In this document: positions 26,928 through 41,388 of the stretch, piece by piece | How the letters are laid out: each line of letters begins with the position of its first letter | Numbering within the stretch: position 1 is the first letter of the stretch | IMG/VR virus record: IMGVR_UViG_3300031953_000045 | Location: 1-41,388 of that record | Source: a virus | Lineage: Duplodnaviria > Caudoviricetes | Strand: one strand, 5' to 3' | DNA: 41,388 bases | Program-made: the position numbers and the translations under genes | The notes under the pieces: model-generated | Told to the model about the DNA's origin: nothing | Seen by the model: the letters and a program-made list of their open reading frames with translations, nothing else | The model's database searches: none

Positions 26928-27127
26928 ATCGTTCCTTTGTTGTTTTCCTGCCGCCGAATCTCAAGGTTCAGCAGCCCTTGCAGCCAGGGGGAGCCGCCAA
27001 GGGCCACATAAGCCGCGTTTTGCCGGTCGGTCAGCCTGATGGCGCGTGGCTTGGTCGGCTCTGCGTCAGGCTTGCGCCCGGCGCCGGGTTGTGCGCCGCC
27101 GAAGCCCTCGCGTGGGCCGCCTCTCAT
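26924..27127 (-). CDS. Small RHH-like DNA-binding protein
   Basis: PGAGRKP...AIRLTD...LGGSPWLQ. Confidence 0.65.
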   Translation of the reverse strand: MRGGPREGFGGAQPGAGRKPDAEPTKPRAIRLTDRQNAAYVALGGSPWLQGLLNLEIRRQENNKGTI

Positions 27128-27279
27128 GGCTTGCCCCGGTACACAGCCCGAATCACCTTGGCGCTGGTCTTGATGTCGATCAAGCGGGACAGGCTGAATC
27201 CAACCGTCCGGCCTTGCTGGTAGGCCAGCCGCACCATGCGGCGGGCTTCCTTGTCTGCCGCCGCCTGCTGGTCAAGCAT
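27124..27279 (-). CDS. Hypothetical basic 51-aa protein
   Basis: MLDQQAAADKEARR...; coupled to neighbours. Confidence 0.55.
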   Translation of the reverse strand: MLDQQAAADKEARRMVRLAYQQGRTVGFSLSRLIDIKTSAKVIRAVYRGKP

Positions 27280-27406
27280 TCTTGATCCAGTCTTCGGCTT
27301 CCTGCTTGGTTTCCAGCACTTGCAGAACTTCGCCGGCGGCATCCAGCACGCGGAACAGGCTAGAAGACTTGCCGAGGAACTTCATGGTGATTTTGCTGAT
27401 GGTCAT
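27272..27406 (-). CDS. Hypothetical 44-aa protein
   Basis: MTISKITMKFLGKSSSLFRVLDAAGEVLQVLETKQEAEDWIKNA; GGAG RBS; own promoter. Confidence 0.65.
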   Translation of the reverse strand: MTISKITMKFLGKSSSLFRVLDAAGEVLQVLETKQEAEDWIKNA

Positions 27407-27438
27407 TTTGTTTACTCCGTTGTGTTGTTGATGTCTCT

Positions 27439-27466
27439 ATTGTATATCGTTAATCTCAAATCACAA
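27439..27466 (-). promoter_or_regulatory. Cassette promoter TTGTGA-16-TACAAT
   Basis: AT-rich intergenic sequence with sigma70-like elements. Confidence 0.55.
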
Positions 27467-27508
27467 CAACTATTTGCACGTTCGGCTAAAAAAGCGGCCT
27501 GAATCGGG

Positions 27509-27904
27509 TCAGGTGGCCTTCGTGTGAATGCAGTCCTCCCACGGCGGAACGTCGCAGTCGCAGTTTGGCTTTGGGATCGCTGGCCTTGTGGTGTCTGACG
27601 GGCCGAATCCGTGGCTGGGCAATTCCTCGCAGGCGAACGACTCAAACAGGCGGCGGTTAACTTGCGTGATCTGCGTGCCCTCTACCCGCTCTGGCCAACC
27701 TGCGCGCGGCGGCCATGGAACACCGATGGCGCGCAGCTGCTTGGCTTTCCATGCGCCGGCCGGCGTCTTGAACTGGTTGATCCATGCGTGTGTGACGGTG
27801 AACAGCCCGGTCGCCAGCTCGGGTTGCGCTGGCGCCGTCTGTGATCGCAGGATGATTTCAGCGGCTTGCCTCAAGATGGAAAGCTCGTCGGGCGTAAATT
27901 GCAT
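27509..27904 (-). CDS. Hypothetical protein with TPAGAW...GVPWPPRAGW domain and C-terminal CDC..PWEDC
   Basis: Motif-rich ORF directly downstream of the large non-coding region. Confidence 0.65.
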   Translation of the reverse strand: MQFTPDELSILRQAAEIILRSQTAPAQPELATGLFTVTHAWINQFKTPAGAWKAKQLRAIGVPWPPRAGWPERVEGTQITQVNRRLFESFACEELPSHGFGPSDTTRPAIPKPNCDCDVPPWEDCIHTKAT

Positions 27905-28484
27905 GGGTTGCCTTGGTTGTGGCGCCGTCAGAACACCGTGAGTCAGTTCTGAGCTTCGCCTAGATACCGAATGAAAGAATGCAAGGGGAAAGAGCCAGGC
28001 TATTCCTTTGGTGGGTCATTAGGCTTTTGTGGACAAATACATGCCTAACCACTCCTGACAAGAAGTAGTTAGGCTATTCCCCCGGAGCCGCACTGAGTGT
28101 CCCGTGGATCGAACCGACTTCAAGCATCGTTCGACTGAGTGGCTTGCCGCTGTTGAAAGCGTCTGACCTGGTCCACTCCACACGGCGAATCACCCGCAAC
28201 AATGAAGCCACGGAACGCCACGCAAAACCCCCAGTGCCCTTGTCATCTTCTTTGGGCGTCTTTCGGCTAGGGCCAAGAACGTAGTAGCGTCGGCATCCTC
28301 GCTGCTGGCCCTTAGGCTTCCTGCGTGAACTCATACCGACTCAAAACCCGTTAGAAACCGACCTAGTCCGAAAAGCAAAAACCCCTTTGGCATCTGCTCT
28401 TCATGTTCGTACCATGATTCCCTTGCGGGGTGGAGCAGACACCAAAGGGGTCTGATAGTTGTCTCTTGGTACGAACAATTGACA
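27905..28484 (-). ncRNA. Putative ~580-nt structured RNA (candidate plasmid-state replicon or regulatory RNA)
   Basis: Largest gap in the genome; own strong promoter; many inverted repeats; G-U wobbles compatible only with the minus strand. Confidence 0.5.
28371..28451 (-). terminator. Attenuator-like 19-bp hairpin followed by a U-tract
   Basis: Arms 28433-28451 and 28381-28399 pair fully with two G-U pairs; followed by UUUUGCUUUU. Confidence 0.6.
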
Positions 28485-28489
28485 GCGCC

Positions 28490-28518
28490 AGTTTATCAGA
28501 AGCCTACGACCGTGACAA
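28490..28518 (-). promoter_or_regulatory. sigma70 promoter TTGTCA-17-TAAACT with extended -10 TG
   Basis: Near-consensus elements with ideal spacing, pointing into the non-coding region. Confidence 0.7.
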
Positions 28519-28714
28519 CCTTCATCACCAGATAGCGCACTTCTGGGTGCATGTCGTTCAGCCGCTGGGCCTCATCGGTAGCGGATAGCACATCATCATG
28601 CAACTGTGAAAACTTCATGCTCTTGCGCGGCTCAGTCTCGCGCATGACGCAGAACTTGCCCTTCCATTCGGTGCGCGGCACCTCGTCTATTTGCTTGCTG
28701 GTTTTCATATTCAT
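28496..28714 (-). CDS. Hypothetical 72-aa protein (H...SATDEAQRL motif)
   Basis: ATGA-coupled to the par partner gene. Confidence 0.65.
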   Translation of the reverse strand: MNMKTSKQIDEVPRTEWKGKFCVMRETEPRKSMKFSQLHDDVLSATDEAQRLNDMHPEVRYLVMKVVTVVGF

Positions 28715-28977
28715 CCCTTGGATTGTATTTTCTGGGGCATGCCCAGCTTCTCCCGAATCGCCTTGATACAAAAAGCATGCATCGAGTCGGGCGTAGTCTC
28801 GGCAATGCGCTTGAGGCTTGCCAGTTCGCGCTCAGTCAGCCGCAAACTGAATGCCGGCGCCCTGCGCTTATCATCAAGCACTGGCGCGGCTGGTGCTGTT
28901 TCTGCACCACTGGCGAACGCTGCCAACTTGGCCGGGTCAACCAGAACGCGGGAAGGCGTGACCTTGAACGCGCTCAT
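28711..28977 (-). CDS. Type Ib partition centromere-binding protein (RHH, ParG-like)
   Basis: 88 aa, coupled to parA; flexible N-terminus with AAFASGA, then FSLRLTERELASLKRIA...SMHAFCIKAIREKL RHH. Confidence 0.7.
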   Translation of the reverse strand: MSAFKVTPSRVLVDPAKLAAFASGAETAPAAPVLDDKRRAPAFSLRLTERELASLKRIAETTPDSMHAFCIKAIREKLGMPQKIQSKG

Positions 28978-29609
28978 GCCAGCAACTCCTGGCACAGCAA
29001 CTGGATTTCGGCCCGTGCGTCGCTGTTTTTCATTTCCACCACGCCGCGCCCAAGCAGCAGCGCATCGCGGTAAATCTTGCGCTCCCGGATGATGCAGCCC
29101 GACAGCGGCAAGTCCGGGAAGTCCGCCAGCAGCTCTTGCGCATCCTGCACCTCCCGGATGCGCTCGTTCGTTGGCGCCATGCAAAGCAGCGCCCGTGCCC
29201 GCATGGCTGGGTTCATGCCGCGCGACAGGCTCAGCAGCTCGTCAACCACCGGCAGCGTCTCCAGATCGGCTTGGCTGGCCTTGATCGGCACATAGACCAG
29301 ATCAGCCGCCACCATGCCCGTGCGCAGCTCCCGCGAATCCCTGCCGCCCGCGTCAATGATGACCCACTGATAACGGCTGGACAAGTCAATGGCCGTGCGG
29401 TAAATGTCGCCCAGCTTCTGCGCGCTGTGGACCTCTGGATAGCCGGCTTCGTTGCGCCGCGCAATGAACTTCGTGGCCGTGGCCTGCTTGTCGGCATCCA
29501 GCAGCATCACATCGAATCCTTCCAGCTTCAGGCAGACGGCCAGATTCGTTGCCGTGGTGCTCTTGCCGCTACCGCCCTTCTCGCCGCCTATCAGGATGAT
29601 CCTGCCCAT
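28974..29609 (-). CDS. parA: ParA-family Walker-type partition ATPase (short, type Ib)
   Basis: KGGSGKST deviant Walker A, LLDADKQ, IIDAGG, RERKIYRDA. Confidence 0.92.
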   Translation of the reverse strand: MGRIILIGGEKGGSGKSTTATNLAVCLKLEGFDVMLLDADKQATATKFIARRNEAGYPEVHSAQKLGDIYRTAIDLSSRYQWVIIDAGGRDSRELRTGMVAADLVYVPIKASQADLETLPVVDELLSLSRGMNPAMRARALLCMAPTNERIREVQDAQELLADFPDLPLSGCIIRERKIYRDALLLGRGVVEMKNSDARAEIQLLCQELLA

Positions 29610-29620
29610 GCTCCCCCCCC

Positions 29621-29675
29621 TGGTGTGATGTGATGTGATACGACATTGTGTCAAATCGAATCACGCGACACCATC
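29621..29675. promoter_or_regulatory. parS/operator-like pentamer array overlapping the par promoter
   Basis: TGGTG-TGATG-TGATG-TGATA facing degenerate inverted TCAAA-TCGAA-TCACG-CGACA-CCA; TGnCACAAT extended -10 on the minus strand. Confidence 0.55.
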
Positions 29676-29684
29676 GGGAAAGCC

Positions 29685-30071
29685 CTACTTTCGCTCAGGA
29701 CAAACCCCCTCCACCAGCGCACCTTTGCGGATGGCTTCGGCCACATTGACCGGCGTGCAAAGTTCCGCGTGCTGCATGCTGTCAGCCAGCACGGCGCACC
29801 GCTCTTGCTCGGCGTCCCGCTCGTCGCGCATGGCGTCCCGCGCTGCCCATGCTTCGGCCACATCGAGCCGCAGCTGCGCGCTTGTGTCTTGCAGTAGGCG
29901 GATGGTGAGGTCGTTAAGGGTGGATTCGTCAGCCCGGATGCGCGCGGCGAAGGCGTCGAGCTGGGCTGGGCTGAAACGAATACTTGCGACCGTCCAGCAG
30001 TAGCCGTCTTGCGATAGTTGGTCTCGGATGGTTGCGCCGTACTCGCGGGCGTGCTCAAGGGTGGCTTTCAC
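29685..30071 (-). CDS. Hypothetical protein (QLDAFAARI, EQERCA motifs)
   Basis: GTGA-coupled; typical phage accessory motifs. Confidence 0.6.
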   Translation of the reverse strand: MKATLEHAREYGATIRDQLSQDGYCWTVASIRFSPAQLDAFAARIRADESTLNDLTIRLLQDTSAQLRLDVAEAWAARDAMRDERDAEQERCAVLADSMQHAELCTPVNVAEAIRKGALVEGVCPERK

Positions 30072-30451
30072 AGCTTCACTCGCACATCAGGAATGATGAC
30101 TGATGGCTTGAAGACAACCACGTAATTGGCCGTGCCGACGGCCACAGGCTCAAGCTGCTCAATAAAGTACGTCACGTTGTCCGATAGGCCAAGAAAATGT
30201 TTCTTGTAAGTGCCGGGTCCAGTTTTGCAAGTGATGCTGACTTGTTTGCTGGTTTCGTTGTTGCCCTTGCTGCACAGGCCCTGGATGCTCAGCATGTAAT
30301 CGCCCGTCACGCCGTTGTAAAAGATGACGCGGCGGTTGACCTCGAAGTTGTCGGCAGCTTTGGATAGATTGTGGGATGCCACATCGGCATCCGTGCTACA
30401 GCCGGACAGTGCTCCGATGGCGAGTAATGCAGTAATAAGTTTGAATTTCAT
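30068..30451 (-). CDS. Conserved phage lipoprotein
   Basis: LSGC lipobox; DADVASHNLSKAADNFEVNRRVIFYNG...KKHFLGLSDNVTYF. Confidence 0.8.
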   Translation of the reverse strand: MKFKLITALLAIGALSGCSTDADVASHNLSKAADNFEVNRRVIFYNGVTGDYMLSIQGLCSKGNNETSKQVSITCKTGPGTYKKHFLGLSDNVTYFIEQLEPVAVGTANYVVVFKPSVIIPDVRVKL

Positions 30452-37353: not shown

Positions 37354-37590
37354 TTAGGCTGGCATCAAGTTCTTGACGAAATCAATGGCTTGCTGGATAG
37401 TTTTGACGCCTGTTTCGTTGATGTCGTCAACGCTCAATCCAAACTCATCTTCGAGCGCCATGAGCACTTCGATTTCATCCAGGCTGTCTGCACCCAGGTC
37501 AGCCATAAGGTTCTTTTCAGGCGTCACGTCTTTGGCTTCGACGCCAAGCTGTTCGGCAATCACCTTCATGACGCGCTTTTCAATTTCCAT
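37354..37590 (-). CDS. acpP: Acyl carrier protein
   Basis: 78-aa acidic protein with VIAEQLGV...DLGADSLD...MALEDEFG; phosphopantetheine Ser intact; GAGGAG RBS. Confidence 0.92.
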   Translation of the reverse strand: MEIEKRVMKVIAEQLGVEAKDVTPEKNLMADLGADSLDEIEVLMALEDEFGLSVDDINETGVKTIQQAIDFVKNLMPA

Positions 37591-37599
37591 CGCTATCTC

Positions 37600-37970
37600 C
37601 TCTGTTGATAAACCGCAGCCCTGCACGCAAGGCTCTGGTTTGCCCTCATTGAGGGCCGGTACTTGTCTCGCCCCGTTAGGCGACTGTCTTTTTACCTATC
37701 GCTGGGGACAACACCCAGCGCGTTTTTACGTGCTAGCCGCTGTTGAGGCGACTATTCCGGTACATCCATCGTTTGCAAGCCTGGTTACTGCAAATCCCCG
37801 AAATTCCGACACGCTGGGGTCACCAGCTTCTACGTTGATTCCTTTTCACTCTCACGAGTGGCAGTTTTGGCGAGTGCCTCTCGGCATATCTCCAGCGCCT
37901 GCTGTCACTGAGCGTTCCGGCTTGAGCCATGTCGGCGCTGCGATGAGGGCCTTGCATCTTTCGGTGCATG
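37600..37970 (-). ncRNA. Putative ~370-nt structured PL leader RNA
   Basis: No minus-strand ORF; string of hairpins with GNRA loops; 8-bp end-to-end pairing. Confidence 0.5.
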
Positions 37971-41026: not shown

Positions 41027-41388
41027 TGGCAAACGATCTGATTGCAGTGGTGCCCATTGAGGTCATCCAAGACAAGCGCTTGACCCTGGAGCAAACCCGC
41101 GTACTGGTGGCACTGTTCTCTTTCCGCAACAAGGTCACGAACACCGTATGGCCATCGCGCAATGCCATCGCAGAGCGTACCGGCATGCATCCATCCAATA
41201 TCAGCGCGGCAACCACCAGCCTTTCCGTGCTGGGCTGGCTGACAAAAGAAGGCCTTGGCGGCTTCTCCAAGTCCACCCGCTACACGCTGGCCGTTCCTGA
41301 TATTGCGCCCATCGTGGTAGCCGTTCGGGCAACGGTAGCCCATTCGGCTACGGTAGCCGATTCGGCTATCACAACGGTAGCCGAATCG
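41026..41388 (+). CDS. Replication initiator (O-like) N-terminal wHTH; runs off the window end
   Basis: MANDLIAVVP...DKRLT...WPSRNAIAERTG...LSVLGWL...STRY; no stop codon before the end. Confidence 0.8.
   Translation, partial: MANDLIAVVPIEVIQDKRLTLEQTRVLVALFSFRNKVTNTVWPSRNAIAERTGMHPSNISAATTSLSVLGWLTKEGLGGFSKSTRYTLAVPDIAPIVVAVRATVAHSATVADSAITTVAES
41317..41388. repeat. Palindromic 17-bp iterons, consensus GTAGCCGAWTCGGCTAC
   Basis: Copies at 41317-41333, 41335-41351, 41353-41369 and 41377-41388 (truncated). Confidence 0.85.

Follow-up and report, generated by a model that had tools for sequence, protein, structure and literature searches.

Almost no functions have been assigned to the large folded RNAs of phages. 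Several described systems nevertheless offer points of comparison for the locus analysed here. In plasmid ColE1, whose replication involves RNA II and RNA I, a G-run drives hybrid formation and RNase H takes part. GOLLD and ROOL are large pseudoknotted phage RNAs. In the cluster A mycobacteriophages RedRock, Alma and LadyBird, RNA-based prophage origins lie next to partition genes, according to the part of PMC7157519 drawn on here; this is a precedent for the first-pass annotation of our sequence, which had proposed an RNA-based replicon beside a par operon. ARRPOF, a motif of 200–350 nt, is found in a region for Rep-independent plasmid replication, and Betaproteobacteria-1 is described in the same source (PMC5737381, the part drawn on here). 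Finally, the CI RNA of phage P4 pairs with seqA, as given in the portion of PMC4825925 drawn on here.

The DNA studied, referred to as the window, is a whole stretch of 41,388 nt (41.4 kb) from a P22-like podophage. Its plus strand encodes terminase, portal, capsid, ejection and lysis functions; the early arm runs leftward, and a repressor-like HTH gene is present. An O-like initiator is split by the contig ends (41026-41385 and 104-556), and its gene contains palindromic iteron-like repeats at 41336-41388 and 1-32 (three sites, a count reached in 0 of 100 shuffles). Because the contig ends cut the O-like initiator at these repeats, the lambda layout suggests that the contig is a circle opened within a lambda-type origin. 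A 41,525-base contig carries the same protein, so the window record may have lost part of the iteron-like array. The early arm also encodes an acyl carrier protein homologue (37354-37626). The PHROG label of recombination directionality factor for 30068-30451, whose product begins with a signal peptide and lipobox as judged by eye, is probably wrong.

The features of the RNA locus and its surroundings are listed below in window coordinates.

28974-29609, minus strand: parA, context beside the RNA and outside the RNA itself
28711-28980, minus strand: small parA partner ORF, context only; presumably ribbon-helix-helix-like, as judged by eye, without a profile match
28490-28518, minus strand: sigma70-type promoter, TTGTCA-17-TG-n-TAAACT, which shares sequence with the final codons of ORF 28496-28714 and has its predicted start near 28483
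28372-28483, minus strand: 5' module, a small hairpin followed by a long three-way hairpin with a 20-bp closing stem and a U-tract (z -6.3)
28467-28477, minus strand: 5' loop segment, an 11-nt complement to 28404-28414 (loop-loop or alternative pairing)
28404-28414, minus strand: inner loop segment, complementing the 5' loop
28387-28415, plus strand: promoter-like site facing the RNA (possible antisense RNA), found in 1 of 39 homologues versus 12% of shuffles
28006-28357, minus strand: type A core RNA, a multi-junction fold with at least two pseudoknots
28071-28080, minus strand: direct repeat copy 1, behind GGCUCC
27997-28006, minus strand: direct repeat copy 2, behind CACC, 74 nt from copy 1
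27509-27904, minus strand: ORF for a 131-aa member of a genuine but nameless protein family whose C terminus bears a CxC..PWEDC motif

Like the cluster A mycobacteriophages, the window phage is temperate, has no integrase and carries a non-coding RNA by its partition cassette in place of an integration cassette; the absence of integrase, anticipated in the first-pass annotation, extends to resolvase genes, none of which was found in the window. The mycobacteriophages, however, belong to another phylum and are likened to the window by layout. Furthermore, the mycobacteriophage origin has no Rep-like gene, whereas the window phage has the O-like initiator at both contig ends, and most homologues of its RNA reside in phages without parA.

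Most of what had been read from the letters of the RNA region was borne out. The stretch from 27905 to 28495 is the largest non-coding gap in the gene list (591 nt; the next measures 519 nt). The near-consensus minus-strand promoter (28518-28490), all six inverted repeats, the 10-bp direct repeat AGGCTATTCC at 27997 and 28071 and the G5 runs of the minus strand (28228-28232 and 28079-28083) are present as described. Three promoter sites occur in 27000-30000, compared with 0.8 ± 1.0 in shuffles, and a site scoring at least 9/12 stands upstream of the RNA in 22 of 39 homologues. The proposed structured RNA of about 580 nt had to be shortened: the 585-nt strand does fold at z -3.5, but the conserved folded part spans about 480 nt (28483-28006), and 27905-28005 fold no better than shuffles (z -0.4). 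The inverted repeats 28381/28433, 28109/28129 and 28043/28068 fit helices of the family, whereas 28269/28306 and 28102/28208 compete with family-supported helices and 27928/27946 falls outside the conserved RNA. The element has two parts on the minus strand, a 110-nt terminator-like module and a 350-nt pseudoknotted core. An 11-bp complement, a U-tract and the plus-strand promoter-like site had been overlooked; the last of these occurs in the window alone and is no family feature. A 37-nt stretch before ORF 27509-27904 (27910-27946) recurs in other contigs of three sequencing runs, joined to the 26950-27004 region, and was absent from 325 fetched loci.

The first homologues of the core were recognised at loci found via ORF 27509-27904, by DNA similarity upstream of the ORF. 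Two motif scans and nhmmer yielded 74 hits, 54 without duplicates, of which the 47 above 80 bits were kept; exclusion of three near-duplicates left 44 sequences in the core alignment. (A first motif scan of viral contigs had given 46 stretches, all judged from their flanks to be chance and dropped.) Across 45 named pairs, 93.5% of cells are paired and 35 pairs show two-sided changes, in line with the expectation of a conserved, covarying structured RNA. None of 500 shuffles scored as high, and sliding the structure along the alignment, our only control for kinship, gave 37–52% paired; the consensus was taken from the same alignment on which it was scored, which favours the fit. The pairs include two crossing helices and a UUCU/AGAA pseudoknot, replaced by GUCU/AGAC in one lineage. 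Conserved motifs comprise UCUxUCGG, ACGUUCU, AGAAG, AGAC, GAAAG, GGCUCC, AGGC and CACCA; several conserved bases are unpaired, loops that we take to be GNRA are swapped with UUCG, and what is presumably a T-loop recurs in many copies. The divergent window copy retains 37 of the 45 consensus pairs. The G5 runs occur in 26 of 44 homologues, within paired regions, and the RNA strand holds more G than C in all 44 (a mild excess, mean 0.10). ORF 28074-28334, whose conservation as a protein would have spoken for a gene, is rejected: it has an in-frame stop in the closest homologue (L020), it gave one tblastn match in 120 loci, and the alignment contains many indels whose length is not a multiple of three. 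A tRNA-like CCA end was considered as well; CACCA is present in 36 of 44 sequences, yet no acceptor stem was established.

An Rfam search, proposed in the first-pass annotation, gave no match in the window and none over the RNA in 13 homologue loci; suspected resemblances to motifs of RNase P, of HEARO and of group I/II introns were dropped, as Rfam lent them no support. INPHARED contained no match to the window, and two homologues gave one short match there, MW202426, a true copy behind a primase gene. The type A pattern, which does not fit the window copy either, was absent from 401 genomes sampled in the family of G034; one type A query found nothing in 5 genomes, and no RNA holder was listed among the sequencing runs. 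We found no description of the core in the literature searched. Six of the nine supplementary files of PMC10690425 lack its motif strings; the part of the supplements of that paper and of PMC5737381 outside the search may hold the motif or a suggestion as to its function. The type A core is a real RNA family that is catalogued neither in Rfam 15 nor in the literature searched.

The 5' module has a C4/CI-like layout. As in C4, P4 CI and IsrK RNAs (RF01695, RF01394), a closing stem encloses inner hairpins, and a phage-specific segment is complementary to the 5' leader loop of the same RNA. The U-tract at about 28372-28380 makes the big hairpin terminator-like. A perfect complement of at least 7 nt between a module and its own leader is present in 30 of 38 homologues versus 9% of cross pairs, and the complementary loop sequence varies from phage to phage. 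Unlike the C4-type RNAs, the window offers no second downstream target: the loop 8-mer was found only twice in the window, both times within the module, and a large RNA follows instead of icd, kil or ant. In some homologues the leader can also pair with a second site downstream of the U-tract; this signal is weak overall (mean 5.3 own versus 4.9 cross) and absent in the window. The Rfam models of C4, P4 CI and IsrK did not match the 5' module; the C4 model did match elsewhere in L020, where a true C4 RNA and an IsrK-like hairpin (632-819) precede a Rha gene; the type A core there, 1 kb further downstream, has no 5' module of the usual kind. In L010 (405-800), a 5' module is followed by a non-coding stretch outside the type A, B and C profiles.

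At the 3' end, the exact sequence AGGCTATTCC is restricted to the window copy (1 of 44). Even so, 32 of 40 homologues have a repeat of their own, of at least 6 nt, in the corresponding two positions, as against 12% of cross pairs (4 of 44 lack the anchor). The 10-bp repeat is a covarying feature of the family.

To test whether the RNA is dispensable, we collected 80 loci by primase alone, 27 of which span the early region. Two of these 27 hold type A (both are the seed phages), 16 hold another putative RNA, type B, seven hold Betaproteobacteria-1 RNA or its profile (type C), and two have an ORF-free stretch as judged by eye. Each alternative RNA is preceded by a promoter and a 5' module of the kinds seen with type A.

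L270:5747-6089: type B, a conserved non-coding sequence of about 300 nt with a G-rich 3' end; also in L255, L259, L264, L267-L271, L273, L276, L278-L281, L284, L288, L295 and L309
L306:5916-6035, L314:6498-6618 and G442-G444: Betaproteobacteria-1 (RF02932) in the slot

Type B gave no Rfam match in the three loci tested and no PLSDB match. In the slot copies of Betaproteobacteria-1, about 80 nt more than the Rfam model covers are conserved, up to a hairpin flanked by the copies of a covarying direct repeat. Besides slot, promoter kind and terminator-like module, types A and C have a common 3' arrangement (GGCUCC, repeat, hairpin, CACC, repeat); the Betaproteobacteria-1 RNA is, however, shorter (about 200 nt versus 350 nt) and shows no profile similarity to type A. 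Neither the window nor 13 other type A records gave a match to the RF02932 covariance model. In L322 and L323, a promoter and a terminator-like hairpin upstream of a ParB-like gene precede what may be a fourth slot type.

Close relatives, with 78–85% primase identity, differ in RNA type. In 29 whole records (14 picked for type A and 15 long records picked for primase), 28 hold one type and none holds two; among near-complete records, 13 of 13 hold exactly one (seven A, four B, two C). These counts are biased by the different ways of picking and by near-duplicates among the loci, and the type A BLAST query misses three known type A records (G026 is a weak match), so that divergent second copies could escape. 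By two PHROG profiles, an O-like initiator is absent in 11 of the 13, and the two that have it are type A phages without Toprim primase. That each related phage fills the slot with one, and no more than one, of several unrelated RNAs makes it likely that the slot RNA is essential. The pattern could also arise at a recombination hot spot whose exchangeable cargo is useful and no more. The interchangeable, one-per-genome slot and its link to Betaproteobacteria-1 are new.

We then considered which genes accompany the RNA. The 34 viral records with type A, seven of them near-complete, contain no tyrosine integrase, one resolvase-type serine recombinase, six HTH_3 genes and 22 Toprim primases. Co-occurrence with parA, which the first-pass annotation had suggested as a check, was not found: ParA is present in two of the 34 (the window and G025) and in none of the seven, and ParA used as a query found no related viral locus. 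From these gene counts, the type A RNA is not par-linked and most of its carriers look lytic. The ParB-like/helicase/primase genes lie in the flank of 27 of 51 type A loci, all on the RNA strand and in 10 cases within 1.5 kb. ORF 27509-27904 has relatives downstream of the RNA in nine of 51 loci and is a frequent but optional neighbour, which excludes it as an obligatory partner; it matched no Pfam or PHROG family, and its good structural model (pLDDT 84.7) gave no clear fold match. Its C-terminal motif has relatives in Rhodoferax and Polaromonas genomes, a weak sequence-based pointer to Betaproteobacteria as hosts of the window phage.

The order of promoter, terminator-like module and core in all slot types would also suit a cis-regulatory leader, in which an attenuator like P4 CI or C4 precedes a large antiterminator or translation switch gating the genes behind. 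P4 gates its own replication genes in this manner (in the portion of PMC4825925 drawn on here). A same-strand ORF of at least 60 aa starts within 160 nt of the RNA in 38 of 43 homologues, a count without a chance control, and in several of them repeat copy 2 reaches into the ribosome-binding region. We consider such a leader unlikely. The genes behind type A vary widely (HNH, DUF5710, ParB-like, small ORFs) and face the RNA in at least four lineages (L225/L200, L209, L177 and G025), where the RNA therefore persists although it has no gene to control; copy 2 of the window stands 90 nt from the next start codon, and the window offers the loop no second target.

HNH genes behind the RNA in L169, L179, L171, L173 and L178, together with the variable genomic positions, raise the further idea of a selfish or relic element (an HNH-borne mobile RNA or a single-stranded DNA structure) that does nothing for the phage. 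We regard this as very improbable: each record has one copy, HNH is missing from most loci, the slot is never empty in near-complete records, and G-U pairs, GNRA/UUCG loops and T-loops indicate RNA.

An RNA-driven replication origin fits the data best, because the RNA occurs once per genome, is exchangeable, is tied to replication genes in a group that lacks the O-like initiator, and is kept where no gene follows. We therefore tentatively read the region as a self-contained promoter-plus-RNA cassette that would serve as such an origin, here of a non-integrating prophage, beside parA at the site that int occupies in lambdoid phages. With one RNA per genome in phages that lack an O-like initiator, the slot agrees with the replicon proposed at the outset. 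The RNA is also present in G025 (L237, L238), a 22-kb element listed as viral, with no virion gene among 18 proteins scanned and with genes for a Rep-like HTH_36 protein, ParA, RHH, a serine recombinase, RadC, a ParB-like protein, helicase and primase around it. In G025, parA lies 7.5 kb from the RNA and is adjoined by the HTH_36 gene instead; an IS-like insertion interrupts the helicase gene.

Several observations speak against an origin. The premise that the lysogenic plasmid needs another replicon is not supported, given the O-like initiator with its iteron-like repeats. Type A lies beside an O-like initiator in G000, G001, G002, G025, G031 and L021, five of them elements other than the window; a second origin looks redundant there, and yet the fold is conserved. 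The RNA also occurs in late-gene regions, behind terL or before terS. The likeness to ColE1 is one of arrangement, i.e. a promoter-driven structured RNA of about 0.5 kb with a 5' control region of about 110 nt whose loops could set specificity. It did not extend to sequence, as nhmmer --max with two profiles against NC_001371 gave no match at E 100. Unlike in ColE1, a U-tract on the sense strand closes the control module, and an antisense promoter is not a conserved feature; moreover, three type A queries against PLSDB (72,556 plasmids) returned nothing beyond short chance matches, in blastn searches of low sensitivity that miss distant copies. ARRPOF occurs in other hosts, and the window RNA has no Rfam match that would join the two.

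Persistence beside initiators in six elements and in late regions suits a trans-acting ornate RNA about as well as an origin. Such an RNA, akin to GOLLD or ROOL, could be a scaffold, a decoy for host defence or an RNA-binding protein, or a ribozyme, with expression timed by the 5' module and the par adjacency incidental. Its own promoter, its many different genome positions and its compact pseudoknotted fold with conserved unpaired bases, loop swaps and T-loops are in keeping with this possibility, which we nevertheless hold doubtful. An accessory role alone leaves unexplained why every near-complete genome has exactly one of three RNAs, and ROOL was non-essential in one tested strain (in the part of PMC12286853 drawn on here). 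Type A is also smaller than GOLLD and ROOL, belongs to other hosts, lacks their Rfam match and is rarely near tRNAs (adjacent genes in 2 of 47 loci, with one more 1.5 kb away).

If the RNA is an origin, host sigma70 polymerase would start near 28483, and many transcripts would stop at the U-tract to give an RNA of about 110 nt. The inner loop of this RNA could pair with the 5' loop of new transcripts, as P4 CI does with seqA, and so adjust copy number or timing through a feedback that differs from phage to phage. Transcripts that pass the U-tract would form the 350-nt core, whose 3' part between the repeat copies may hold an RNA-DNA hybrid or open complex for the start of replication, to be used by host priming proteins or, in relatives, by phage helicase and primase. 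Lytic growth of the window phage would rely on its O-like initiator and the iteron-like repeats. In the primase group, the ParB-like HTH protein might act as an initiator instead, which would speak against an RNA origin.

More speculatively, and in our view rather unlikely as a whole, a widespread group of phages may do without an initiator protein and start replication at a structured RNA, with at least three unrelated, freely swapped folds (A, B and Betaproteobacteria-1), each controlled by a small RNA whose loop code differs between phages; the window phage would have borrowed one of them as its plasmid-prophage origin. As the slot always holds exactly one of several dissimilar RNAs, these should be functional analogues, so that a role established for one of them by cloning or swapping would carry over to both uncatalogued families and the orphan Rfam family Betaproteobacteria-1. 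Should that role be initiation, RNA-driven origins would extend from ColE1 and the mycobacteriophages to proteobacterial phages, lytic-looking ones included, and would offer a possible answer to how phage-plasmids without a recognisable Rep replicate.
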